Position numbers and translations under genes: made by a program
Source of the DNA: Eledone cirrhosa
Lineage: Eukaryota
Assembly: GCA_964016885.1 (NCBI GenBank)
Contig: OZ024741.1
Coordinates: forward strand, 380,804,001-380,868,000
DNA length: 64,000 nt
Reading direction: 5' to 3'
Notes under the pieces: generated by a model
Databases searched by the model: none
What the model was told of the DNA's origin: nothing
The model's input: the letters and a program-made list of their open reading frames with translations, nothing else
Part shown: positions 8,648 through 51,682 of the stretch, one piece after another
Position numbering within the stretch: position 1 is the first letter of the stretch
How the letters are laid out: each line of letters starts with the position of its first letter

Positions 8648-10901
8648 GTAATAATAATAAATTTCAAGACTAAAATCCAAAGAAGGCTCGATAAGGATAA
8701 ATATATATCAAATATATGAGAACCGTAGAGCAAATATTTATTAAAATAACAGATTAACGGGATCTTCTGAAACTAAAAAAATCAATCTTTGAACGCAGAA
8801 GTAAATGTTTCGAAAAACGTTGCAACCGAAGGAAGACAAGAAGACGATACTTTGGTTCGTGGGGACGTTCCCTATCAAAGAACGGGAAAAAACGAAGCTA
8901 ATACGTCATTGTTTGGAGCGGTGAGAACAATTACACACAAAGACAAAACCACCTCGATTGTTAATTACCTCGACGTTACCCTCAATTTGTCGAATGGCTT
9001 GCACTACCCGTATAGACAGCCGAATGATACGCTTAGTTACATAAGTAAGCATTCTAACCATCCTGCCAGCATAACCAAGAACCTGCTAAGAAACGTATCT
9101 TTGAGGCTTTCTCGTCTATCTGCAAACGAGCATATTTTCACCGATCATTCCACATATTACAATGAAGCTCTTGCTCGGAGTGGATTTGTCGATAAGGTAG
9201 CATATACCGAGTATGAGCATAGACCTAGGAAAAATAGATCCCGACGCATTATATGGTATAACCCACCATATAATATGGAGGTGACCACACCTAAGATCTT
9301 TCTCTCCCTTATTATGAAGCATTTCCCCCAGCACATAAATATAGTAAATTTTTTAATAGAAATACCATTAAAATTTCTTACTCTACGACTCCTAACCTTG
9401 CACATAACATCACTGCTTCAAATTTGGCTAAATTACTTAGCCGTAGGAACACGTGAAACCCTGAGCTAGTACTAACTGTAATTGTAGGAACCGGGAAATG
9501 CCTCTCTAGTAACATTGTCTACAAATGTAAGGTTAAAACACCCACGTCCCGTAGGGCCTACATAGGGTTAACCGCCAATAGATTCAAGCATCGTCTTTAC
9601 ATGCATACCCATACTTTTCTTAACCCTTTAAAAAGGAATATGACGTCACTTTCAGCTTATATCTGGAGTCTAAAAAACAACCAAACCCAGTATAGGTTAC
9701 ACTGGGAGATCCTAGCTAGGGCTAGATCGTATAACAGAAATAAAAGACCATGTGACTTATGCGCCGCTGAAGCCCTGGAAATACACTACGCCAATGACCA
9801 CATCTTAAACAAAAAATCTGAAGCAATTTCGGCTTGTAAACATAAATTGAACAAAACTTTCCTGTATTACAGCCCCACATTATAGCCTAACGGATAGTAC
9901 GAACTATACGTGGATAATTTACGTCTTGGTGTGGTAGCTAAGTATATTTAATGTTTATACCATTACTTATTTGTATAGGTAAGTATATTTTACCTGTATA
10001 TTTTGCGAAGGTACGTATACTTTCTCGTACGTATATTTGCTTGTATTTGTTATAGGCGTATAAATTATATTATATGAGTTTTGCGTTTGCGCGTGTATGC
10101 GGGTTTTCACGTCTGTAGGGTGTGTGTATATGTGTACTTTGTGTTTTGGTTGGCGTACGTTTAGCGAACATATGTGTATTTACATGTAGGTATGTGTGTG
10201 CGCGCGTTACATACGTATATATGTGTGTATATTTATATACGTTTATATAATTATATGTATACGCACACACACATACATATGTATTTTCTATATATGTTTT
10301 ATGTGTATGGGGTGTATACGTTCGTATGTGTGCGGGTACAGGCGTTGCGTGGGTTTTTGTATGTGTACGTGCCTGTATTTGCATACCCATGGCGGGTGTT
10401 TTCGCGTATGCATGTGTATGTACGTATATGGATGCGTGCATGTATATATATAGTCATTGTTGATTTCAATAACCTCTGTAATTTATTTACATTATTCTTA
10501 ACTCTGAAGCCTAGAATCATTCAGTTTCCAAAATAGAATTTTAGTCTTCGACTTCAGTTATACCATACACATGGTTTTGTCTTTGCGTGTAATTGTTATC
10601 ACCGCTCCACATAATGACGTATTATTTTCGTTTTTCCGTTCATTGCCAGGCAATGTCTCCACGAACCACCTAATAGAATATTAGTCTACGACTTCATTTA
10701 TACCATAAACGTGGTTTTGTCTTTGCGTGTAATTGTTTTCAACGTTCCAAATAATGACGTATTATGCTCGTTTTTTTCCGTTCTTTGCCAGGGAACGTCT
10801 CCACGAACCAAAGATCGTCTTCCTGTCTTCCTTCGGTTGCAACGTTTTTCGAAATATTTACTTCTGCGTTCACAGATTGATTTTTTTTAGTTTCAGAAGA
10901 T
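8648..10901 (+). mobile_element. 5'-truncated Penelope-like element (Naiad-type) with an inverted terminal copy at its 5' end
   Basis: RT thumb + GIY-YIG coding at 8953-9885. Low-complexity 3' region. Tandem ~140-bp units at 10533-10810. 8762-8952 is an inverted copy of 10711-10901. Confidence 0.85.
8953..9885 (+). pseudogene. Penelope-like RT C-terminus/thumb + GIY-YIG endonuclease (frameshifted)
   Basis: Motifs VNYLDVTL...PYRQPN...YISKHSNHP...RLSRLS...YNEALARSGF...IIWYNPPY; NRNTIKISYS; CNCR; NIVYKC...AYIG...FKHR; CDLC; LNKKSE...CKH. Confidence 0.9.
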
Positions 10902-13977: not shown

Positions 13978-15879
13978 ATGGACGACTCACAGTCACACCT
14001 TCCTCACAAACTAACACCTCACACTAACACCACCATTGTAAATATTACTACGTTTGCCAACACTAAAAATATAAGCAGTAGCAATATTTTAAATTTGTCT
14101 CATGCAGACATTCATTTCCCGCCATTACCAATGACTGCAGGTGTTGAAGCCGCTACCCCCACCACAGCGACAACAGAAACAAAAGAAAAAATAAATTATC
14201 TCGTGACATCGAAATGGATTCACCCAGAATAGACTCTTCCACACCGAACACCACTGACGCCACCAACACCACAACTGAAACTAAAAATAACAATAACAAA
14301 AATAACAATAACAACAACAGCAATGAGAATAACATCCTGTCATTTGCGAAGGCAGCCAAGAAATGCGAAACAATCCAGGTGACTCAGGAGGAATTAGATG
14401 AAGCCAAGAGAATGGTAAAGAAAGATGGGTACAGGGTCAGCAAGCCCCCCCCCCCCACTCACACACGCCACCACCAAATAAAATAGAGCATCGGCGCATG
14501 TGCACTGTGTCTTATCCGACGATTAACATAAAATCGCGCCGAGTGGAACGGGCATCCGAGTCCCAAATCCAAAAAGCTTTGGGACATGTGTGGGCAAAAA
14601 AAACCCACATCAGACGTGGGCAGAAATATGGAACCGTGGACGTGTTCTTTGGAACACCACAGGAGGCCAGAGAGCACTCCATGGCCCCATTAAGAAGCGA
14701 CAACTTCACATTCATCCCAAGCTATTGTAGCCAGACACTCGTAAAGATAAGGGTGACCCGGTTCCACCGGCCATCGAAATTCCCTGGCTAATGGCTGCCG
14801 TCCTCGCCGGCATCGAGGCCAACACCAAAATAATAGAAGCAAAAAAAAAAGCAGGAGAACTGGTCCGGATCTGGGATGGAGCTCCTGATCCAAGCGGACC
14901 AGAAAAGCATTGAGGAGATCCCAGAGGTAATAGACCTCACTGACGGCAGCCACCTCACCGTAATCGTCGAGGGCAGAAGGCCTAGGTGTGTCGTTTGTGG
15001 TGAAGAAACCCACCTAAGGGCTTTCTGCTCTCAGGGTAAAAGGTTGAGGCCACCTCTCTTACCCACCCCAGTGACTCAACTATCAACACCACCAGCAGCA
15101 GAAATGGCAGCAACAACTGTAGCAGCAACAACAGAAGCAACTGTAACAGCAACAACTCCAGCAACAGTAACAATACCAACACCACCACCACCCAACGCAC
15201 CAGAACTAGCACCTGCGCCTACACCATCCACCACGCCACAACCAACACCAACGCCTGTGGAGGATTTTCCACTCCCCGACCTATCGCAACTGGAGACAGA
15301 TTGTGACGACGAGGAGTGGGAAACGGTATCAGGTAAAAAAAAAAAGAAAGAGTCCAAAAAAGAAAAAATTCTCTTCCTTCCCCCTCCAAAAACAAAATAC
15401 AGAGGGAAACAAATAAACTATCAAACAAAAAAGTTAGGACAGCTATACCACCATGCACACCAGCATCACCAACCCCATTACCACAAACACCAACACCATC
15501 ACCATCATTAACCCCAACACCACCATCACCAACACCACAAAAGTCACCAAAAAGCGAAACAGAAACAAACCCTCAATAAACTCAAACAAAACAAAACACA
15601 GCAATAAATTTGAACAACAACCAATTATTACACTACATCCAACACAACACCAGCATCACAGAACAAGACTACACAACAACCCAAAAGTTCACACCACCTC
15701 CACACATACAAATCACTCGCAACACACAGAAAACGTACACGACACTTAACAAAAATTCCCCAAAGACATTGGAGACTTCCGACAAGCACTCTCCATGTGG
15801 ATTTATAAGGACATGCTTCCGGAGGAGGCCAGAAGCAGTGAAAAGGATGGACAAACCATCCTTCCTCTACGAGAAGTAA
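13978..15879 (+). pseudogene. Tx1 ORF1 (gag-like; CX2CX4HX4C zinc knuckle; low-complexity T/P/N regions), frameshifted
   Basis: PRCVVCGEETHLRAFC in ORF 14876-15511. Upstream RRM-like segment ...IRRGQKYGTVDVFFGTPQEA... The exact start is uncertain. Confidence 0.7.
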
Positions 15880-15918
15880 GGGAAGTGGTCTTTCCCATCT
15901 TTTCCACTCCATTTCAAC

Positions 15919-18809
15919 ATGACCTCACTCAGAATAGGCAGCATAAATGCGCGTGGCTTGGGGTCGTCATGGAAGCAGGGCCACCTTCTCAACGACCTCA
16001 GGTCACTAAACATAGATTGTTTATGCCCCGACAGAAGCAGGGCGGCCTGATTTCTTCCGGCGTCTGGAGACCTTTCTTGGAACGTCCCGCTCTTTAGTGT
16101 TAGGGGGCGACTGGAACGGGATCTTAGATGCACGCTGGGACTGTGTGGGATTAGCGGATAGGGGAAGAGGGTGCAAGAGCCTCACCAACCTGCTCAGGCG
16201 TTTTGAACTGTCTGACAGGTACCGAGTGGATTTTCCCAATGTGCCAATGTGGACTTGGACAAATTGTATAGGGTCATCCAGATCATATCTAGATAGAGTA
16301 TTTTGTAGGGAAATAGATAGGTCTAGCATAGGCTGTCCACAATTCAAGATAGTCAGCTACACGGACCACACATTCGTGATCTGTGTGCTTGACTTAGATA
16401 GGCTTCATAGACGAGGACTTGGCTACTGGAAGCTAAACGCGTCCTTACCAGCGCGCAAGGCCTACAGAGACCGGATTAGCGAACTAGTTAAGCGGGCGTT
16501 GACGGGGGCCATCGTGAACAACAAGTGGTGGTTTGCTCTGAAAAGAGCAATTAGAATAGAGTCCATTAGGTTTAGTAAGACTTTAGCAATAGAGAAAAAT
16601 ACAGCAGAGGGAGAACTAGTTAGAAAATTAGACGAGGCGCTTAGCAAAGGCATCGCGACCGACGTACTTGCGGCTAAATTGGCCCTTGACCAATTCTTCA
16701 ATGCAAAGCACAAAGGCTGCGTTCTCAGAGCTAGGGTGCGTGCTCTCAGACACGAGGGGGACGAAAGCCGTTAAATGGACCCGAGTGGCGGAGGCGCGTC
16801 GTGGCAACAAAGCCACGATCCGGTCTTTGGAGGACCACGACGGGCGCATGCTACTCGATCACGGGCAAATGTGTGAAGCTTTTCAGTGACATTTCGCACA
16901 GCTGTTCGGGGGCAGCGGCGGGCCGGATCGAGGGATGGACTTTAGTGTCTACCTCGACGGACTGCCGCGGCTCTCGACGACTGAGGCGGAGTGTTGCGAA
17001 AAGCCGATAACAGCCGCTGAAGTACGGGAGGCAATGACTGGCTGCACAATGGGTAAATCGCCTGGTTTGGATGGTCTGCCCTATGAACTTTACGTACAGA
17101 TGCCAGACTTGTTCGGCGGACGTCTACCGCAACTGATAACAGAACGGGAGAATTCCCAACTCCATGAGCCGACGAGCTCTGGCGCTGCTGAGAAAGGATC
17201 CGAACAAGCTGGATAACATAGATATAACAGAGGCTGGATCTCTGCCATGCACAGCGACATCTGCTCTGTGGTGAGAGTGGACGGTCACCTTTCGGAACCG
17301 TTCAACATCATGCGCTCGGTCCGCCAAGGATGTCCCCTCTCGTCCCTCTTGTACGTATTGACTCTCGAGCTATTACTGCACAAACAGGAAACGTTGAGGG
17401 GGGTCCCGCGCGAACTAGGATGCGGAATATCTGTGTCAGCATATGCGGACGATGACACCGTAGTGGTGTCGAACGCCAAACACATCGAGGCGATCGGTAC
17501 TACACTAAGAGAATACGAAGCGGTGACAGGAGCAATGATCAACCAGGAAAAGTCAGTGGGCCTGCAGCTCGGCACCTGGAGAGGCAGGTACATGCCGTCC
17601 AACAGCGTCGTCGGGCGCTGGACGGACGGACCGGTTAAATTGCTAGGGGTCTGGTTCGGTCCGGACCTCCAGACGGACAAGAACTGGGACGCAGTGACGA
17701 GCAGGGTGGCTTCTCTCACCCAGAAATGGGCGGAGGGGAAGCAATCCCTGAAAGGTCGAGCGGAGGTGGCTAACGCCTACATCGCGTCCGTCATCCACTA
17801 CCGCCTGACCGTCGTACCTTGTCCTAAGCCCCGCCTGACTGCGCTGGAGCGTTTGCTCTTTCGCTTTTTGTGGAAGGGACGCGCTCCGATGGTTAGGCGG
17901 TCCATCTGCTGTCAACACCCGCTACGTGGAGGGCTGGGCATGCCGTGGCTGATGATGCGCAGACACGCGCTCAGGTTATGACATCTCCACCTCTTCCTCG
18001 ACGGTGATCAGGTGTGGTCGCCGTTTGCTAGACACGTCTTTCCCCAGCTCGTCTCCTTGACGGAGCTGCAGTCTTGGGTCAAGCGAAGACCGAGAGGGAG
18101 CGCTTGGAGACTGGAATGTCTTCAGGCGCTCACAGCCCTCGACCAATTGGGCAATGTGATCGGTGGAAACTCCACCTTGGCTTTCTCTAGAGGATTAGTG
18201 GAGGGGAAGAGCGACGACGTATTTGGAGAAACTCTAGGCGTCGACGAAAATCAACTAACCAATCTCTTCGGAAGGACTTTCGGGCCGGGGCCTATGGACA
18301 ACTTCCAGAAATCCCTGGCCTGGCAGTGCTACCGGGGGGCTTTGCCAGTTCGGGATAAACTCTACAGGCATGGAGGTGCCGTCAGCTGGGCATGTCCGAG
18401 ATGCGCGCAGGGCGACGAAACCGTCCTGCACGCACTCGTCCAGTGTCCGAGCATTGCTGACTTGTGGGTTCATGTCGAAGACATGCTGTCACGTGTAGGA
18501 CGGATCCAGCTATCAGCTGAGTCCATCGTGAGGATTGAGCCGCCCTCTTCCTTTAGCCAGGAAGGGCAGGCAGTTTTTATCTGTCTGGTGGCCATGGCGA
18601 AAGAGATAGTATGGTGGACACGTTTGAAAGGGCTGAAGACGAGCACTTACCTCTTCGGTGATGCCCTGATTAACTTTTTCAAATTTCATTTGAAAAGGAA
18701 AAACAGGGTAGAGATGGAAGTGCTCTCTTCCCAGCATTTTGTTGAAAGATGGGTGAGAGAAGCAAGTATGGCCCGAGTGAATGGGCCTACTCTGAGTATG
18801 TGTCTGTAA
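15919..18809 (+). pseudogene. Tx1 ORF2: AP endonuclease, reverse transcriptase, C-terminal Zn finger; stops and two internal deletions
   Basis: Motifs MTSLRIGSINARGL; VYAP; GGDWN; SYLDR; YTDH; YWKLN; KSPGLDGLPYE; SVRQGCPLS; AYADD; LLGVWF; CPRC...HALVQC. Deletions near 16017 (EN) and 17222 (RT segment that is present in the copy at 63820-64000). Confidence 0.92.
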
Positions 18810-19041
18810 ATTAAAGGTGGAAAACTGGGAGAGGGCACTTGCCCTGGGTGTCAGGGTCACTGTGATCTTTTAATGGGCTTTCTCCACAAATGTCCCTCCG
18901 AAGTCTCCCCCCTATTGGGGAATTTTTCTTTGTTATTTTATTACATCCTCTGTTTTTTTACACGCAGAAATGCCCATTTGTACTGTCCTGTACTGTCCTT
19001 AATGTCTACTTTATGTAAACCCTTGTGGTTAATAAAGAAAA

Positions 19042-19077
<36 letters not shown>

Positions 19078-20821
19078 TATTTTCTTCAATTTTCTATGCT
19101 GGCATGTATTGCATGGGATATTTTGAAATAATGCTTCGCGGCTGAATGCTCTCCCTGATGCAAACCATGAAATGCCTCGTATGAAATGCAGGGATACAGT
19201 ATACATATTATAGAAGCTGGGATACACAACACATGACTCAAGACTTCAAAAATGGAAAGGCACACTCAATATGTAATCATGGATTTACAAGGAAGGATGA
19301 AATGGTGATGGTCAAGGAGGGAACAACATTTGTTTTTACTTGGTAGGTCTGGTGGAAGTGGCAGTGTTCTTTACCAGCTCTCTAAGACTGGAGTGATTAA
19401 TGCTATTCATCATCATCATCATCCTCGTTATCATCACCACCACTGTTTGACTTCTATTTTACATGCTTGCATGGATTAAGTGATTTATCTCGTCTAGGTG
19501 TCAGGCTGGTAAGGTGACTTCATTTTGTTCATACATTCCTGCTCTATTTTCTCCAGCTAGATACCAACCAATTCACAATGTGTTCTGTGTGCATTTTATT
19601 TTGATACTACCAGTACCAATTGACTTCTGTTTAAATAGTTGCAAGTTCACTCTTTTGTAAAAAGCAAGATTTACACAATTTAGATTGACAATGGTGTAAA
19701 CAAGAAATCACCCCAATTATCAGTTAACTTCATTTCAGTCTAGAGACGTAAAATTTATCTTAATGAGGTGTTCTGTCTGACATGTTATACTTCATTTCTT
19801 CATGACTGCATGTTTCCTTTATTACACTGTTACAACATAATATATTTTAAAGTTGATATAAGAAGAATTGAACCAGAAGACATGACATTAGTGTTTCAGC
19901 TGACATTTCATTGCCTATATACTGTTGCAATTGATTTCAAAGCAGGCTGTGAAAAATACATATCAATATCAATTAATGAAAATAGAAAATAACAAGATCA
20001 ATTCTTTGTGATAATCTCATGCGCTTGATGATGTTCTTCTGTTTTGTAATTAAATTTCAATAGCTTCTCAGAGTTCTTTCGATATTCTTTGTATTGTTCT
20101 TATAAAGTAATTACATATTTCCATTATATATTGCATATTTCCATAGCCAATAATCCTAAAAGCAAGAAATATTTTATAAGGCTGAAGTTCACACTATATA
20201 ACCTACAAACTAGTGCTATTATTTTTATTTATTTATTTATTGCAACAAAAGATTTCCTGTTCAGAGCAATACTAAAAGCACATTAATAATCAGTGCTGAT
20301 AAAATGTCACCTACTTCTTAGTACGCTATTAATAAGAAAATGATATACTTCTTGTGTTGTTATGTTTGTGATCTGCATATGTACCATTCATATATCTATA
20401 TGTGTATGTACTGCAGTGCATTAGGAATTTACCAACACACTTATGCACAAAATATATGCCTATACATATATGTCTATATATATATATATATATATATTAT
20501 AGTAATAATAATAAATGTGAATAATATATATATACAGATATATGTAAAGAAAGTTGTAGTAAAATGATGATGGTGAAGAAGCATGTATATGTGTGAGTGT
20601 TAGTGCGAATAAGAAGGATTTCCTTCTTTGTTACAACATACACACATATACAGATGCCGTTGGTGCAAAAACAAATATATCAAATGATGTATATTTTCCC
20701 CTTACAGATAAATTTTTTTATTATTTACTCATTTATTTCAGATGTTAATTGATATGGAAATATATCTATATCACACGTATCTCTCATATATGTGTATCAT
20801 ACACACACACACATACATGTA

Positions 20822-20949
20822 TATATATATAATTGTTTCTAATTTTGGCACAAGGCCAGCAATTATCCCAGTGTATTACTGGTACTTTATTAGTAATAAC
20901 TGGGATAATTGCTGGCCTTGTGCCAAAAGTAGAAACAATTATATATATA
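20822..20949. repeat. hairpin formed by a SINE tail and its inverted copy (~59-bp arms, 11-nt loop)
   Basis: aattgtttctaattttggcacaaggccagcaattatcccagtgtattact / agtaataactgggataattgctggccttgtgccaaaagtagaaacaatt. Confidence 0.9.
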
Positions 20950-21129
20950 ATAGAAAAAAACAAGGAAGTTTCGTTTACATACGAATAATATTCATTACGT
21001 ATCGAACTATTACGCGTGATTCACAGAGGATTGGCTCAAGGTGCCACATACGAGTTATGGACCCGACTGAAGCATACATATATATAATATAAACCATCCC
21101 AACCTCACCTTCCCATACATCTCTCATGA

Positions 21130-21689: not shown

Positions 21690-23900
21690 CACACATATAT
21701 ATATATGTGTTTAATTATAAAAATCTGGATGGAATCAATTTGAAACTGTTGGACCATGATGCAACAGATTACGTGATACTTGGGACAGTAGAGTATGGTT
21801 ATATTATAAAGCTGAGCTCTTGTCATTTCAACAGTTAGTTCCAGACTGTTTGCTGAAGGGCTTGGATGATTTACTGGCTGTATCATCAACAGCGTGGTTT
21901 GTTCAAATAAGGATATACAATATTTATCCAATTGTAAATTCTCTTCATATAAGTGTTAAATTTGTTTCTATATATATGGTTTGGGAGAGGTTTTGTGTGT
22001 AGATATTTAGCTTTGTGAGTGTGTTTATGCATGTATGCATCCGAGTGTATCTGCCCGGTCAACTTGAGATAGAATAATCATGGAATGGGGATGGAGTTAT
22101 ATTTATTGAAAATATATTAGGGCATGTGTGTATGTTTGCCTCCAGGCATGGTTATCACAGCAGGTCTATAGAATTTGTGTCAGACCTAGCAGTAGATCAC
22201 TCTAATCAAAGAAATGTCCTAATTCACTGATTGGTAAATTAAATGCATCTCTCAAAGAAGTGATGTAATGAATGTAATATCTAGTGGAATTTTCTGGTTT
22301 AAGTTTATTTACTAATAACTAAAGTAGCAGGAGTATACATAGATTTGATTTACATAAAATATCCATATTTCGTTGTACTACGGAGTTAGTGGTGGGGATT
22401 ATATCTCGTGTATTTATAGAGGAATAGCTGAAGTGGGTGATTACTATTTATTATGCCATGTAATATGCATATGTTTGTTTTAAGTATGTATATGTGTTCC
22501 AAGGGGGGTCGTGGGGGTTCTCTGCTTGCAATTAGGTATTTTTTGTTCTGTAATAGAATGCTAGAATGGGTGTTGTTTTTTTAATCTCACTATCATAAAA
22601 AATGTTGTGGTACGCACCTATTTAGGAATAAATGTATTTGGCTGAAGGGTTGGATGTGCAGGTTCGATTGGTGCAAGATGAGCTGTTTATGTACTGGATG
22701 TATGTGCCATTAATTTGTTTTGTCAAATAATGGCATGTGTGCTTTGTTGTGACATGGTTGGCTCAAAAGATTCAATAAGAGCTAGTCCTGTGTGCATTTC
22801 TGGGTGCTAGTGGGATCTGTTGGTAAAGTTTATGTGGAGTTGTGCACATTTTTGTGTGAGCACTAGTTCTGTATTTATTTCTGGGTTCTGTTGGGGTCTG
22901 CTATTGGAATGTATATGGAGTTGTGTTCGTTTGTGCATATGTGCTATGTAGACCTAGGTATGTATTTGCCAGTGTGGATGTGGGTATGTACAATGGATGT
23001 TGGGGAAAATGTCTTACCCTTCAGGTTCATGACGTTGAGGTATGTTTGTAAATCCAGCGTTTGCTCGCAGTCACGAGTTCATCCTTTTTTATTTGCAAAC
23101 AACATTTGGATTGTCTCCTCTGAGCATAAATTGTACGGGTGGCATCTTTCTGTATAAGGTTTGACCTTGGACAAGAGATTTCAATTCAGATCATAGGTGA
23201 TGTTATTGTTGCAGCGATGCCAAGTATTGCTAGATTTCTCGTAGCATTTATTGTAGCAAATATTGTAGCATTTCTCCGGGGCAGGTTTCTAAAAGTATTC
23301 TGGTGTTGATAAAACCTTGCTATGAATTCGCAGGCGGTTACTCCGATTTAGGCTTTGTTAATATGTTCTGTCTTGACATTGCACTTGTACATGAGGTTCC
23401 ATTGCTGACCTTTTTTGTTTAAAGGAGAATGTGTTTTGTCCATGCAATTACATGGCCTAAATTCCTCCCAACTGAGGTCAGAATGAGGTTAATTAGAACT
23501 GAGTTTGTCAGTTTTTCAGGACATGATGATTTGTGCGAAGTTGGGTGTGGTGCTGTAAGAAAGTTTGATTGTGTTTTTGTTGAAGATATTGTAGTAAAAA
23601 TGATGTGGTGAGAAATGTTTACTGAAAAGTTTGAAGAAAAACTTCCCAATTGGTATGGTGACTTCAGCATTGTGAGGAGGAATACACCATGTTATGTTAC
23701 ATGAACAGCAACTCCGCCTGCTAATTCTATTAAGGGGGCTTGGGTGGTAGGTAAGTTCTACCTTAAATCTCCTTTTTCATGGGCATGGTTGTAGTGCGAT
23801 GAATGTTCCTGGAAGATCAGATCGTTAGCAGATAGGTTTAATATACAGAGGGAGATATTCTTTAACAAATCTTTAGTTATATTCCTTGGGTGTTTAATTA
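21690..23900 (-). mobile_element. third, strongly decayed Penelope-like (Naiad-type) element
   Basis: Minus strand ~23900-23045 translates KHPRNITKDLLKNISL...; PCNCMDK; NLMYKC...KA*IGVTACEFIARFYQHQNTF; KPY...NLCSEE. The left boundary is approximate. Confidence 0.75.
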
Positions 23901-23966
23901 TATATATATATATGTTTTTTTTATTTTGTAATGAAATAGTTCACTCTTTTCTGCTTTACCTTTTCT

Positions 23967-24027
<61 letters not shown>

Positions 24028-24030
<3 letters not shown>

Positions 24031-24883
24031 GGCTAAGACTAAAGTTCTAGTTTGTAAGAAAGAAAATAAGGCGGCGGTCCCCTCCGGGAAGTGGCCATGC
24101 GCAGAGTGTAGGAAAGGCGTAGGTAGAAATTCCATTTTGTGTCCCAAATGCAAAGTTTGGGTGCATAAAAGATGTAGTGGGATCACAGGTAAGCTAACTA
24201 AGAACATAGATTTTACATGTGGCCGGTGTTCTGGGGCAATAAGTAGCAGCAAGTGCCCACAAAATACTAGCTCTTTCAACTGCGCAGAGGGTTCTATAGA
24301 AATAGTGGACAGCTTCCGTTACCTGGGTGACAAAATCAGCAGTGGGGGAGGGTGCTCTGAAAGTACAGTAGCTAGAGTCAGAACTGGGTGGAAAAAGTTC
24401 AGAGAGCTTATACCACTATTAGCCGCTAAAGGGTTCTCCCTAAAAATGAAAGGCAGGCTGTACGATGCCTGCATACGAACAGCAATGTTGCATGGCAGTG
24501 AGACCTGGGTATTGTGTGCAGAGGATATACGCAGACTAGAGAGAAACGAAGCTTGCATGCTCCGCTGGATGTGTAATAGTAATATACGTGAACGACAAAG
24601 CATAAACGAACTAAGGAAAAAATTAGAAATAAGAGGGATCAGATGTTGTTTACTAGAGAGAAGGCTACGTTGGTATGGTCACGTGATGCGCATGAAGGAC
24701 GATAGCTGTATAACAAAGTACAGGGCAATAAAGATAGACGGTAGCCACGGAATAGGCAGACCCAGAAAAACCTGGGACGAGCTGATAAACTCCGACCTCA
24801 CACACTTACACCTCACCAAGACAATGTCACTGGACCGAGACCTTTGGCGGTACTCAGTAATAGAGAAGACCCGCCTTACCTAA
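24028..24883 (+). pseudogene. RTE ORF C-terminal part: PHD finger within RT, FRYLG, thumb
   Basis: KTKVL...WPCAEC...CPKC...HKRC...CGRC...FRYLGD...MLHGSETW...RRLRWYGHVMR...GRPRKTW. The N-terminal 39 aa of the ORF-track call are flank/(TA)n artefact. Confidence 0.9.
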
Positions 24884-25264
24884 ATACAAAGTAAAACCTA
24901 CTACAGTCAGTAGGCATCTCTAACAAAATACACCCCCCCCCCCAGCCCATCCACACCGCCCCCTTCTATGTAAAGTTATGTTGGTGCCACAACATCCAGT
25001 CTGAAACAAATGAGATCGTGTAGGTGTCACGACAAAAAAACACACAGTCCACGCTGTAATGTGGCCGTGTAGGCAACACGGTAAAAACCTCCCAGACCCA
25101 CACTGTAAATGTGGTTGGTGTTAGGAAGGGCATCCAACTGTAGAAAACCTGCCAGACAGGCCTATGCGAGCAAGACAATCACTCTTGCCTCAAGTGGGAA
25201 AACCCCCGTCCAAACCCATGCAAGCGTGGAACACGGACGTTAAACGTTGATGATGATGATGATG
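24028..25264 (+). mobile_element. young 5'-truncated RTE LINE with an open ORF remnant and (GAT)n tail
   Basis: Uninterrupted frame 24028-24883, 3'UTR repeats and tail at ~25247-25264. Closely similar to 38446-39655. Confidence 0.92.
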
Positions 25265-25639
25265 ATCATCATCATCATGGATTAATGCCCATCTTCCATG
25301 GGTTAGATTGGTTTTTCCCATTTGGAGGCAAGTTGGGTCTGGTGACCATGTCTTGCTCATATGGGAGAGTCTACTAACCACCAACATACATCCTCACACT
25401 CACACTAACACCTACCTATACCCATGGCTCCTGTCCAACAAAATCATATTCATCCTTCAAATCTGGAAAATCAAATGCAGACAACCCACCCTCCCAAAGG
25501 TAGAGGTAGGTGTTAGTGTGAGTATGAGGATGTATGTTGGTGGTTAGTAGACTGATTGGAGCAATAATGGTTTTATTTAACTCCATATGTATGTATATAA
25601 AAAAATGTGGACAGGGTACTAGGGGAGGTAACCATACCT

Positions 25640-37965: not shown

Positions 37966-39655
37966 TAGATGTTCGGGTTTGTGTCAGGTAAAAGTACCAC
38001 AGACACTCTTTTCATTGTACGACAACTACAAGAGAAGTACCTAGCTAAAAGTAAACCCTTATACTTAGCTTTTGTTGACTTGGAAAAAGCCTTTGACAGA
38101 GTCCCTCGCTCCATTATCTGGTGGGCGCTTAGAAAACTAGGTGTTGATGAATGGCTTGTGAGAGCTATACAAGCCATGTATAAAGAAACAGTCAGCAAAG
38201 TTAGAATTAACAACGAATATAGTGAAGAGTTTAGCGTAAAAGTTGGTGTTCATCAGGGCTCCGTTCTTAGCCCCCTACTATTTATTATTGACCTTCAGGC
38301 TATAACAGAGGAGTTCAAGACCGGCTGCCCATGGGAACTCCTATATGCAGATGATCTAACGCTCATAGCTGAATCAATGACTGAACTAGAGAAGAAATTC
38401 CAAACATGGAAGCATGGCCTAGATTCAAAAGGCCTTAAAGTTAACTTGTCTAAGACTAAAGTTCTAGTTTGTAGGAAGGAAAATAGGGCACCGGTCCCAT
38501 CTGGGAAATGGCCATGCTCAGTGTGTAGGAAAGGAGTAGGCAGAAACTCCATTTTATGTCCCAAATGCAAAGTATGGGTGCATAAAAGATGTAGTGGGAT
38601 CACAGGTAAGCTAACTAAGAATATAGATTTTATATGTGGTCGGTGCTCTGGTGCAATAAGTAGCAGCAAGTGCCCACAGAATACTAGCTCATTCCATTGC
38701 ACTGATGGTTCTATAGAAATAGTGGACACCTTCCGTTACCTGGGTGACAAAATCAGCAGTGGGGGAGGGTGCTCTGAAAGTACAGTAGCTAGAGTCAGAA
38801 CGGGATGGAAAAAGTTCAGAGAGCTTATACCACTATTGGCCGCTACGATGATGCCTACATACGAACAGCAATGGTACATGGCAGTGAGACCTGGGCATTG
38901 TGTGCAGAGGATATACGCAGACTGGAGAGAAACGAAGCTTGCATGCTCTGCTGGATGTGTAATAGTAATATACGTGAACGGCAAAGCATAAACGAACTAA
39001 GGGAGAAATTAGGAATAAGAGGGATCAGATGTTGTTTACTCAAGAGAAGACTACGTTGGTATGGTCACGTGATGCGCATGAAAGACGACAGCTGTATAAA
39101 AAAGTGCAGGGTGATAAAAATAGACGGTAGCCACGGAGTAGGCAGACCCAGAAAAACCTGGGACGACTTGACAAATTCCGACCTCACACACTTACACGTC
39201 TCCAAGACAATGTCACTGGACCGAGATCTTTTGCGCTACACAGTCATACAGAAGACCCGCCTTGCCTAAATACAAAGCGAAAGCTACAGTCAGTAGGCAC
39301 CTCTTAACAAAATACCCCCCCCCCGTCCCACTACCCCCCCCCCCCCCTTAAATATCAAGTTATGTTGGTACCACAACATCCAGTCTAAAACAAATGAGGT
39401 CATGTAGGTGTCACGACAATAAAACACACAGTCCACGCTGTAATGTGGCCGTGTAGGTAACACGGTAAAAACCTCCCAGTCCACACTGTAAACGTTGGTG
39501 GTGTTAGGAAGGGCATCCAGTTGTAGAAAACCCGTCAGACAGTCCTATACGAGCAGGACAACAAATCTTGCCTTAAGTGGGAAACCTCCTGTCCAAACCC
39601 ATGCAAGCGTAGAAGATGGACGTTAAACGATGATGATGATGATGAGGATGATGAT
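37966..39655 (+). mobile_element. 5'-truncated young RTE LINE (1.7 kb) with (GAT)n tail
   Basis: RT from the FGF motif onward, 3'UTR repeats and tail at 39629-39655. Confidence 0.93.
37969..39269 (+). pseudogene. RTE reverse transcriptase (with PHD insertion); frameshifting ~30-bp deletion near 38845
   Basis: FVDLEKAFDRVP; GVHQGSVLSPLLF; LLYADDL; C4HC3; FRYLG. KGFSLKMKGRL, present in the 24-kb copy, is missing here. Confidence 0.93.
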
Positions 39656-40714: not shown

Positions 40715-42608
40715 TCTATATATATAAAACAGAGGATGTGTGTTTGTCTGTGTGTGTGGATTCTACATTATTCGAGGTTGGTGTCTACACCGCTCGCCCA
40801 ATCTCGCTCAAATTTGCATACATCACTCTTCATGACCCTTTACATTGCTTAGGCTACTTTGTTTTTTGATAGGTTCCCCCAGGGTCCCGCATTCCACCTT
40901 TGTGTCTATTTTGGGTGAAATCGGGAGATGAGGTTGCATTTTTATGCACGCGTGAAAAATTTTTCCTTTTGAGTTTTTTGACCCGGTTTTTTGCTAATAT
41001 GGGTAGAAAAGAGTCTAAATTTTGTTGATGTGCTCGAATCATTTCAAAATTCGGTCGAGAGTGAAGCTCGAGGTCGAATCTCCACTTCGTATATAGAGAG
41101 ATAGGAATAACAGGTCTTATAGTAACATTACCTTCCCCTTCCCCCTTCTTTAGAGAGAGAAGTTTTGGGTGTCACAGAAATATTACATTCCCCTCTCCAC
41201 TTTGGTCCGTGAGCGAACCACTGTTGCTATAGTAACATTACCTTCCCCCTCCCCCTTCTTTATTGAGCGAGGAATATAGAGAGAGACGTTGTTGGTGCTA
41301 CAGTAACATTACCTTCTCCTCTCCACTTACTTTGGTCTTTGAGACCGAGGGAACCACTGTTGCTATAGTTACAGCTTCACATGACACAAACCAGTTCCTG
41401 CCAGTTCTGACCACCTGGCACCAGTTGAGTCAGTTTTTGCTTTCTTTCGGTCGAGAAGTGGACAAATTTTCGCCTTGAATCAAAAAAAAATTTCCTGGAC
41501 GGCCGGAGGTGGCAGCTTTTATTCTGTTTTGGCAAGACTGCTATCAAAAAATTCTGCAGACTCTTATCGTTGATTTGAGTGGCCTGCAAAGCTTTGGTTT
41601 TCAAACGCTACACTTGCTACTTGGTTAGGCTACTGTGTAGATGTGTGCTTCACTCTCACTGCATTACATTTTGTGACCTCGCTTTCGGACTTTGCCATTC
41701 CCAGTACGTTTTTTGTTTACTTTTTTCTTGCTTAAAATTGTAACAATTTGTCACTTTTTTTTACCTCCCCCAAAATACTGCTTATCACCTTCGCTTTTTT
41801 GCCTTTGCTCTAAACCTGCTTCCCCTTTACTGTTTACTGTACTATTGCAACCATGCCACTGAAAAGAAAGTGTACCCTTAGCTGTAGGAAAACATCGTCT
41901 GTTGTTTCAAAAAAGAGGCGATTGAATGAGCAGTCTACGGATGCCGGACTGCCACAAACCCCTGTTACTTCACTTTCAAACTTAAGTACCCCTAGCACAG
42001 CCCAACCCAGCGCCTCTCTATCTACAGTTACCGCTTAGAATCGTGCCATTCGTAATTGTCGGAATGCAGTTGCAACAGCCGCCTCTAGGGCAGCAGAGAG
42101 TGACAGCCAAAGAGCTCTTCGTAGGGCTAGGAATGCTGCAACTACTGCTGCTGCAAGGGCCTCCAAAACTAAACAGCAAACAGCCACCAGACGGTCAAAG
42201 AACGCTGCTTCAACCGCTGCCTTCCGTGCCGCAGAAACAGACCACGAGACAGCCATCCGAAGGTCCAAGGACTCCGCCTCCAAGGCAGCTGCCAGAGCAT
42301 CCCAGACCGAGATACAGACAGCCATCCGAAGGTCCAAGGACTCCGCCTCCACCGCAGCTGCCAGAGCATCCCAGACCGAGATACAGACAGCCATCCGAAG
42401 GTCTCAGAACGCTGTATCCACTGCCACCTCCTGTGCCGCAGAACATCAAACAGCCCGCCATGCTCGGTTGGTCACAATTCTATTATCATTACAACTTTGA
42501 CATATTTTATGTAAAGTGAATATGAGAAAAAAAAATTCTTCATATTTATTGTTTCCTAATCTGAATAAAAACAGCAGTAACCCGGGCAACGCCGGGTCAT
42601 TCAGCTAG
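40715..42608 (+). mobile_element. non-autonomous Helitron (1894 bp)
   Basis: A|TCTATATATATAAA at the 5' end. 3' hairpin acccgg-gcaacg-ccgggt (42580-42597), then CTAG|T at 42605-42608. No TSD. Internal minisatellite at ~41100-41375. Confidence 0.9.
41853..42500 (+). pseudogene. N-terminal remnant of the Helitron protein with ~6.5 tandem 23-aa (STPR-like) repeats; one in-frame TAG at 42036-42038
   Basis: MPLKRK...KKRR...*NRAIRNCRNAVATAASR AAESDSQRALRRARNAATTAAAR ASKTKQQTATRRSKNAASTAAFR AAETDHETAIRRSKDSASKAAAR ASQTEIQTAIRRSKDSASTAAAR ASQTEIQTAIRRSQNAVSTATSC AAEHQTARHARL; 216 codons in one frame. Confidence 0.75.
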
Positions 42609-49400: not shown

Positions 49401-50062
49401 TTTTCTTCGAGATTACATATAAATGTTCAAATTTGCATATCCTTTACATGCAAAACAGCTCAACATTTTTTGTTTTAACTCAATATAAAAAAAAAAAGAT
49501 TCTCATAAAATTGCTCATATAACATTGCAATTATGCAATAAAGTAAGGCAGTGAATTGGCAAAATGTTTAGACCATCAGGTTAAAATGCTTCATGGTGTT
49601 TGTTTGTCTTCTGTGCTCTAATTCCAAATCCCACCGAGGTCAATCTTAGCTTTCATCCATGTAAAATCGATAAATAAAGCACCTCTCCAGATTGATGGAT
49701 TAACAGATGTGTTAAATCATTGGATGTGTTGTGGCATGGTATCTCTTCCAGCTCTTTGCATTCTGTGTTTGCCTGTGATGTCACTGATGCCAAGCTGTAT
49801 CAGCCTTTGCTTTTTCCATGGACAGCATCTGTGGTCTGCATAGAGTAGATTAACATGGAAAGATAACTATTGGCTTTCTACAAAGAATCTTCCCCAGGGG
49901 AGCTTTCAGAAATAAGAATATTGTGATACAAATGCACTGTAAATTATGTCTCCTTTTGAGAACATGAGTCCAGTTCATAGCAATTTTTGCATCCTTGAGC
50001 AAGATGCATTATATCACTCACTTCAATCTGCTTTGCAGGTAACATATTCTATACCTACTTAA

Positions 50063-50284
50063 CCCTTTTGATATCAAATCCCCTTAAAATGACTGATTTT
50101 ATAATATAAAGCTGTTTGTTTTAAAGTGTTCAAGACATTCCATTATAATTTCATTTAAGAACCTGTGCTAAGTTATGTTTCAAACACTATATTAATAAGG
50201 GAAGATAGTTATATTACTAAATTACTCCAAATTCTTTATCATTTTCAAAATGATTTGAAAATTAGAACTAAGTTAATGAAAGGG
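50063..50284. mobile_element. piggyBac-type MITE
   Basis: TTAA|CCCTTTTGAT ... AATGAAAGGG|TTAA. Confidence 0.6.
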
Positions 50285-50735
50285 TTAAGTAGATAGTATT
50301 GAGAATACCATCCTAATGAAATAATTGTTTCTACTTTAGGCACAAGGACAGCAATTACCCAGTGCATTACTGGTACTTTTATTTTATTGACCCCGTAAGG
50401 ATGAAAGGCAAAGTCAACCTCGGCGGGATTGACTTTGCCGCCGAGGTTGACTTTGCCTTTCATCCTTACGGGGTCAATAAAATAAAAGTACCAGTAATGC
50501 ACTGGGTAATTGCTGTCCTTGTGCCTAAAGTAGAAACAATTATTTCATTAGGATGGTATTCTCAATACTATCTACTTAACCCTTTCATTAACTTAGTTCT
50601 AATTTTCAAATCATTTTGAAAATGATAAAGAATTTGGAGTAATTTAGTAATATAACTATCTTCCCTTATTAATATAGTGTTTGAAACATAACTTAGCACA
50701 GGTTCTTAAATGAAATTATAATGGAATGTCTTGAA
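50129..50735. repeat. apparently perfect palindrome, 298-bp arms, 11-nt spacer, built on a 5'-truncated SINE insertion
   Basis: Arms 50129-50426 and 50438-50735. The mirrored ORFs 50245-50502(-) and 50362-50619(+) are identical except at the centre. TSD aatgaaataat at 50315-50325 and 50734-50744. Confidence 0.95.
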
Positions 50736-50969
50736 TGAAATAATGGTTTCTAACATACACATAAAGCCTGACATGTTTTGTAGGATGAGAGTATAGTTTA
50801 TTATATTGACCCAGTACTTGACTGGTTCTTATTTTACCAACCTCAGAAAGAAACAAATGCAGAGTTTACTCAAACAGGATTTGAATACATCAAGGTATGC
50901 AACTAAATAACACAAAATATATTTGGTCAATGCTCTAACAATTCTGTAACCCCACCACTTTGATCCAAA

Positions 50970-51178
50970 TAATTGTTTCTACTTTAGGCACAGGGTCAGC
51001 AATTTGAAGGGGAGGGGAAACTCGATTAAATCGACCGCAGTGCTTTATTTATCGACCTTGTAAGGATGAAAGGCAAAACTAACTTCAGCGGGATTCAAAC
51101 TCAGAATGTAAAGGAAAGTAACTATATGCTGCAAAGCATGGTGTTTGTTGCTCTACTGATACTGTAAATCCACCACCC
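50970..51178 (-). mobile_element. full-length SINE, intermediate-age subfamily
   Basis: A/B boxes and core on the minus strand; retains the gtcgatttaatcgagtttcccc segment. Confidence 0.8.
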
Positions 51179-51682
51179 TACCTTTATCTAAATAATAATA
51201 ACTGCTCCAACAGGCTAATATTAAATTTTGTGAGATCCATCACATTTATGTTAACATGAGAGACATAATTATATAGGTAAAATAGTTGTTTAGCCCCAAG
51301 TGACCCATGATCAAGCAGAAATCTGATCAATAACCTTCAACTCATGGACATCTTTCTCATTTTTACATTGTGCAATACGTTATCCCATGTATCCATCTTT
51401 ATTTAAGATAATACAGTGTGATTCAAAGAAGATATTGTGAGCTATTTCTATGTTATCTACTCAATATAAAATAATAAGAAATTCAAAAGGGCAATAAAAT
51501 TTGATAAAGCACTCATAAATTTATATATCTTTTATTTGTATAAAATTCAATCTTTAATTTATGACATAATTAAATGCTCGTTTAAAGAGCTTAAAATTGA
51601 AGTTAATGGATTTCTTAATTAATTGAATCCTGTAGATTTTTAACTTTGTTTTATTTGATAAATTACTGATATCATCAATATC

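Follow-up and report, generated by a model that had tools for sequence, protein, structure and literature searches.

A perfect 298-nt-armed palindrome in the genome of Eledone cirrhosa as a likely record of SINE cDNA snap-back during insertion

A perfect palindrome of about 600 bp, located in a 64,000-nt stretch of the 3.0-Gb genome of Eledone cirrhosa (the window, whose positions are used throughout), is very probably a real chromosomal structure that likely arose in one insertion event: an unfinished SINE cDNA primed its own extension, copied its tail together with 197 nt of target DNA, and joined the far side of the staggered cut. As such, it likely preserves a poorly observed stage of retrotransposon insertion. 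SINE fold-backs number in the hundreds in this genome, and the locus is not a one-off. We also lean, with more modest confidence, toward a broader view of this genome as a fossil record of several hundred inherited snap-backs, in which the SINE cDNA end is often left free, self-primes at fixed 2-nt registers (sometimes twice) and copies from 15 to over 1,000 nt of its own flank, with the staggered far end intact. So far, snap-back is known chiefly as a minority outcome of transgene insertion in cell culture, and flank inversions from a handful of somatic L1 insertions. The natural cases here run to hundreds, are datable and derive from one 187-nt template; they bear on 5'-end joining and second-strand synthesis of non-LTR inserts, and their countable priming registers, arm lengths and duplication survival constrain the timing of the second nick, resection and joining. 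If the broader view is true, retrotransposition would continually add perfect palindromes to the genome, and arm lengths would show how much DNA lay open where the element inserted in a germ line; the arms, if transcribed, are predicted to form perfect double-stranded RNA.

The window has a GC content of 37% and is rich in SINEs and LINE fragments. No open reading frame of at least 110 aa lies within 45.4-55.0 kb, and the locus by itself shows no sign of function. An initial annotation, made from the sequence alone, had described the palindrome, its composition and an unusual central stretch, all of which are borne out by alignment of the arms (50129-50426 and 50438-50735), which are 298 nt each, 100% complementary and separated by an 11-nt spacer. 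Left flank, duplication, 3' part of a minus-strand SINE (50326-50430), 7 extra nt, inverted SINE part, inverted duplication, 186 nt of inverted flank and duplication follow one another in this order, the flank and duplication copied by arm 2 amounting to 197 nt. At the centre, 50429-50439 (ttgactttgcc, the stretch across the spacer singled out earlier) is the reverse complement of 50407-50417, and 50438-50450 is that of 50414-50426. The features are as follows.

50129..50314, + strand: left genomic flank (arm 1), of which arm 2 holds a copy; an old interspersed repeat (about 50059-50264), with ~75% identity to many loci, makes up most of it
50315..50325, + strand: target-site duplication, primer-side copy, whose last 6 nt match the SINE tail; of 31 family copies, 17 have duplications of 9-20 nt that start at the tail
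50326..50430, - strand: young SINE, 5'-truncated, 3' part (about positions 78-181 of a 187-nt copy), recognised by sequence matches to window copies; the + strand would be the first-strand cDNA
50429..50439, + strand: presumed first fold-back product, TT primed on AA with 9 nt added; reverse complement of 50407-50417, with a junction exact at 62 sites
50438..50538, + strand: SINE part of arm 2, presumed second fold-back with CC on GG 50425-50426, copying arm 1 including three variants; based on complementarity and the variants
50539..50549, - strand: third copy of the duplication, inverted, within arm 2; 11-mer search
50550..50735, - strand: left flank (186 nt) as inverted copy in arm 2; arm complementarity
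50734..50744, + strand: target-site duplication, second copy, with AA 50734-50735 common to the arm 2 end; 11-mer search, junction found in runs X2-X4
50740..50958, - strand: old, diverged member of the same SINE superfamily; its 3' tail served as the insertion target; alignment to young copy

Read support for the locus comes from three runs of one sample (X2-X4). Contigs from each of these runs span the right junction (50706-50992) without mismatch at depths of 7.7, 6.06 and 6.6, next to 7.7, 5.8 and 6.9 for the left flank and 15.6, 12 and 13.3 for the arm piece, which is collapsed; the resulting ratios are 1.93-2.07 (arm/flank) and 0.96-1.04 (junction/flank). These depths fit a homozygous palindrome, whereas a ratio of about 1.5 would be expected if one of two alleles were empty, and no empty-allele branch was found in the assembled contigs of these runs. 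A fold-back library chimera or an assembly error is nevertheless an explanation to be weighed, given that the arms are 100% identical, that the library type is unrecorded and the reads possibly are the assembly's own data, and that the junction contig extends just 30 letters into the arm, the central spacer not being among the pieces listed. We regard this explanation as highly improbable: a read chimera is unlikely at a locus where the right junction is present at flank depth in three runs and the arm at about twice that depth, a chimera would not recreate the duplication, and sister loci have diverged arms. Run X1, under another organism label (share 0.08), yielded only SINE body among the pieces listed. 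Position 51232 of the window reads A in X2 and X4 and G in X3 and the window, likely a heterozygous site in that sample.

The insert is bounded, as had been annotated, by an 11-bp target-site duplication (aatgaaataat, 50315-50325 and 50734-50744): on the + strand of the window this 11-mer occurs at 50315 and 50734 only, and it is found once reversed, at 50539 inside arm 2. The chance of meeting it within 5 positions is ~1e-5; only three of the 11 duplicated letters are free of both tail-likeness and microhomology, with a chance of 0.017 for these alone. The length of 11 nt compares with 9-20 nt for the duplications that start at the tail in 17 of 31 ordinary family copies (one of 32 was dropped, since it sits at a sequence edge). 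What the annotation missed is the target itself, which, as judged by alignment, is the tail of an older SINE lying to the right of the duplication (50740 to about 50958, minus strand) with 130 identities and 47 mismatches to a young copy and a score of 107.6 vs. 72.6 for the best of 300 shuffles. This old SINE lies on the same strand as the young one, and its tail supplies the end of the duplication, which would account for 6 of the 11 duplicated bases being tail-like. Insertion of a young copy in the tail of an older one recurs at four other loci (L042, L051, L071 and L077). A third SINE (50967-51180) directly follows the old one, and the whole of 50740-51180 is on the minus strand, with SINEs stacked head to tail. 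Two further approaches to the target were rejected. Paralogs do not reveal the pre-insertion site, since the old repeat of the left flank ends before the duplication; and a G following the duplication, considered as a strict consensus for the nick, is frequent in one fold-back set, but it is seen in 8 of 22 cases in another and in 6 of 17 ordinary copies.

The inserted element (50320-50430, its last 6 nt overlapping the duplication) is 92-96% identical to other copies in the window, retains an intact 3' tail and is truncated at the 5' end, covering about positions 78-187 of a 187-nt copy. Its family is large: one 25-mer has 41,678 exact copies in the genome, and roughly 230,000 young copies are estimated by extrapolation from 20 copies per 260 kb of unselected DNA. 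The SINE appears to contain A- and B-box-like words, judged by their consensus, and presumably it resembles an octopod family; scans with ARAGORN and Rfam for a tRNA-derived head were empty.

A search of the genome with exact probes revealed that folding of this SINE is a recurrent event. The first probe, from the same fold region, matched 61 fold-back sites vs. 0 of opposite polarity; a more 3' probe, 213 vs. 100; and a more 5' probe, 22 vs. 0. The first-fold junction of the focal locus is present exactly at 62 sites, mostly missed by the first probe, and with at most one mismatch at 220 sites, a count from probe matches alone. Combined, the exact-match probes yield about 357 sites vs. roughly 230,000 young copies, a share of at least about 0.15%; this value is approximate, as older subfamilies are also caught by one of the probes. 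Individual loci were read for 49 of the 61 first-probe sites (50 among the matches listed, with L041 left out as a segmental copy of L040 and the focal locus included), for 20 of the 22 5'-probe sites, and for 46 of the 61 first-fold sites other than the focal one; two of the 20 and six of the 46 were excluded for having no located tail. The arms of the 46 first-fold sites that were read measure 13-240 nt, and all 40 sites with a located tail have distinct flanks. A MITE or foldback DNA transposon was rejected as the identity of the focal structure, whose flank is matched at 100% at the two arms only (73-84% elsewhere), while the flanks of sister loci are unrelated. As a side observation, L040 and L041 (G000:C2, 204.43 and 204.49 Mb) are one fold-back insertion present twice, 64 kb apart and in opposite orientation, i.e., an inverted segmental duplication. 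The window itself holds a second SINE fold-back (20829-20954), in which ~63 nt of a minus-strand 3' end are followed by an inverted copy to the tail, amid AT repeats.

Second arms mostly stop within the SINE. Read-through into the own flank with the duplication kept is seen at L059 (6 nt), L064, L072, L077, L199, L201, L218 and L231, and read-through with no duplication at the arm end at L040, L075, L176, L177 and L178. At L176 (G000:C10:26242600-26250600), the inverted repeat is centred on the SINE, and its arms extend over about 1.6-1.7 kb at 92% identity; the focal arm is the longest among the examined loci that keep a duplication. Arm 2 of L064 carries an extra insert of ~24 nt, not in arm 1, that starts at the duplication boundary. 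Elsewhere the arms are no longer identical: over 28 loci, 1,729 columns hold 62 arm-specific differences (3.6% pairwise), and the class is thus old genomic DNA. The focal arms show 0 differences in 298 nt, a divergence below 1%, which suggests that this palindrome is either young or homogenised. Homogenisation as a rule for the class was discarded, given 62 arm-specific vs. 14 shared differences.

The connection between folding and insertion was assessed by looking for at least 10 nt of the sequence preceding the SINE tail in an interval from -12 to +45 nt around the arm 2 end, with flanks swapped between loci as a control. Such duplications follow arm 2 in 27 of 49 loci of the first-probe set (control 3.3%), in 9 of 18 of the 5'-probe set (1.8%) and in 22 of 40 of the first-fold set (1.2%), frequencies so far above control that the fold-back is tied to insertion; around half of the fold-back loci are without a duplication of at least 10 nt, and some of those counted are AT-rich, low-complexity repeats. 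The polarity in which the tail is kept, as predicted for a folding cDNA, prevails at 61 vs. 0 and 22 vs. 0 in the first-probe and 5'-probe searches. Polarity is not absolute, since the 100 opposite-polarity sites, which lie on a small internal hairpin of the SINE itself, imply that a DNA-level, sense-strand template switch also acts. Reading 23 of them by eye (L113-L135) gave 17 short inversions inside tail-keeping copies, 3 short tailless cases, 2 joining two different copies and 1 long one (L123); the short sense-strand inversions at this hairpin look like quasi-palindrome template switching.

The same process offers a different account of the focal locus, namely, that a normal SINE insertion aged and that a replication template switch later made the inverted duplication, returning by chance at the start of the old duplication. 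Besides the 100 sites at the internal hairpin, this account gains from the private variants shared by the arms. Such variants had been annotated; there are three of them, common to both arms and absent as a set from other window copies. Genome-wide, the 49-nt haplotype with all three is exact in the two arms only, i.e., an exact search gave no third copy that could be a source; two of the three variants occur together at 10 further places. These near copies were rejected as evidence of a source subfamily since they mix two subfamilies, so that two variants likely recur independently. Three shared variants in 78 columns is, moreover, high for the fold-back class (P about 0.016). At L059, however, the two shared variants occur in three other copies, as inheritance from a source predicts. 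A later switch would have to land on the duplication start not only here, but in about half of the loci of three sets, and it predicts both polarities where 61:0 and 22:0 were observed. Altogether, we consider a later template switch an unlikely origin of the palindrome.

Folding of the cDNA during insertion, the preferred reading, can be laid out in five steps. (1) A LINE endonuclease would nick the + strand after 50325, in the tail of the old SINE, the other strand being cut 11 nt away. (2) Reverse transcription from that 3' end would yield 50326-50430 (105 nt) and then stop. (3) The terminal TT would pair with AA at 50416-50417, and 9 nt, visible in the sequence, would be added. (4) The new CC end would pair again, with GG at 50425-50426, and synthesis would continue along the cDNA into the 11-nt overhang and then across 186 nt of flank, all of which are present in arm 2; this would require the other strand of the flank to be resected or displaced and, at the cost of this step, a stem of 11.4 kcal/mol to melt. 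(5) The nascent AA end would anneal to the overhang of 11 nt at the right end, after which fill-in would make the structure permanent. The AA at 50734-50735 is compatible with the end of arm 2 and the start of the duplication alike, arm 2 running up to where the duplication begins and having 2 nt in common with it, so the 2-nt microhomology proposed earlier for the rejoining is in place. From the snap-back scenario of the annotation, the two cDNA fold-backs, the read-through and the microhomology rejoining all fit the sequence, and each step recurs elsewhere: re-priming after the same GCC at L063, a second TT-on-AA priming at L067. Its picture of a single locus gives way to one of hundreds, and the target is the tail of an older SINE. 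Across 49 loci, the fold-point microhomology is 2 nt in 26 and 1 nt in 11 (37 of 49), and two registers account for 23 of the 26 fold points with 2 nt. The priming hairpins at the focal locus are not stable on their own, and a test of hairpin stability found that the cDNA end folds no better than shuffles (z about +1.1).

Two explanations share elements of this scheme. Arm 2 could derive from the other end, if the right end's 3' overhang entered the left flank by strand invasion, then copied up to and across the new insert and joined at the centre. The 2-nt microhomology is equally readable from the other strand, and L1 reciprocal-end inverted duplications have been reported (PMC10191854; bioRxiv 10.1101/2024.12.14.628481). 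Still, such an origin needs a finished second strand as template and leaves unexplained both the cDNA self-pairing registers at 62 exact central junctions and the predominance of arms ending within the SINE, so we hold it to be very unlikely. Another source of identical central junctions at many sites could be a hairpin already present in the template RNA, transcribed from an amplified palindromic source copy. The 197 nt in arm 2 that are unique to the focal target site exclude it here, and target-specific read-through with common junctions is also seen at L059, L037, L199 and L204; its probability at the focal locus is next to negligible, a hairpin-in-RNA origin being possible solely for short arms ending inside the SINE.

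With respect to the timing of cDNA self-priming, the placement of duplications in the three sets suggests that extension precedes formation of the 5' junction. Polymerase theta uses short microhomology and releases repeatedly; short microhomology and repeated release at these loci may point to a host end-joining polymerase. Our guess is that a host end-joining or repair polymerase acted on a free single-stranded cDNA end, although the LINE reverse transcriptase itself may have done so.

Several known systems resemble this structure in part. In L1 twin priming, the inverted 5' segment of the insert is upstream RNA sequence that would otherwise be missing; an inverted segment at the 5' end of the insert is a common trait, but twin priming was rejected here since arm 2 duplicates arm 1 and genomic flank and does not represent missing upstream sequence. 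The closest term is the 'snap-back' 5' junction defined for transgene insertion by the R2 protein (PRINT; PMC11371274, PMC11331408), where the cDNA 3' end primes the complement of the cDNA before 5' junction formation and the target becomes joined to antisense element sequence. At the focal locus, likewise, the cDNA 3' end is extended by its own complement and the far target end is joined to the reverse complement (junction 50735/50736, in X2-X4). PRINT, however, is engineered and takes place in cultured human cells at rDNA, whereas we describe a natural SINE in an assembly, with a duplication, two primings and synthesis that passes the 3' tail and enters the flank on the primer side; the accessible text of the PRINT papers, figures apart, mentions priming on nearby rDNA and not flank read-through. 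Among somatic L1 insertions, foldback inverted duplications upstream of the target were described by Nam et al. (PMC10191854; 3 cases, 0.3%, plus 1, of 52-220 bp), and two reciprocal-end inverted duplications with 2-bp priming are available in a preprint (bioRxiv 10.1101/2024.12.14.628481). These share with the focal locus an inverted duplication of target DNA at insertion, 2-bp hairpin priming, a kept duplication and a similar length. Yet they are somatic and concern the reciprocal (5' upstream) end, while at the focal locus it is the end bearing the cDNA that folds, and the duplication takes in the element as well; the single primary-end case in the accessible text of the preprint is an inversion and not a duplication. 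Accordingly, an L1-type reciprocal-end event was rejected, the copied flank being on the primer (3' tail) side and the copy including the element.

In zebrafish LINE inserts, extra 5' nucleotides templated from flanking or LINE DNA via annealing with 1-2 bp of microhomology (PMC4245944, PMC4760211) are ascribed to annealing of LINE and genomic ends, and long self-primed palindromes are not described in the accessible text of those reports. The inverted pLTRs of Penelope elements, attributed to self-priming (PMC3846280), are similar as natural head-to-head inverted repeats within a target duplication; they differ in being a regular structural trait of a separate element class, one that has a GIY-YIG nuclease, and in copying no target flank, whereas the SINE type is an occasional outcome. 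The type of junction is therefore already named in the literature, and its form and scale here were not found in print: our literature search returned no report of natural SINE snap-back palindromes copying their own target flank at this scale in the germline, though figures, supplements and most subscription papers may hold cases.

A lead, and only that, to the element that may drive the SINE is a LINE at about 14100-19080 (+), a candidate partner by sequence. It belongs to a young family with copies 94-97% alike, has a 28-nt 3' end that matches the SINE tail at 21 positions and is followed by ATT repeats, and encodes a detectable RT domain along with an endonuclease match below the Pfam cut-off. 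The two RT elements of the window with GAT-repeat ends were rejected as partners, the SINE tail not being shared. At 23795-25272 and 37969-39655 lie two copies (88%) of an RT-encoding element that carries a PHD finger next to its RT domain and has a tail of GAT repeats. A 69-nt tandem repeat at 41986-42519 has open frames on both strands, a low-complexity product and no Pfam hit. The ORFs at 8777-9885, judged by a motif, presumably resemble a Penelope-type element, with no Pfam match for ORF 9457-9882; close to them are an inverted repeat pair (8762-8952 and 10711-10901) and a 139-nt tandem duplication (10532-10810).
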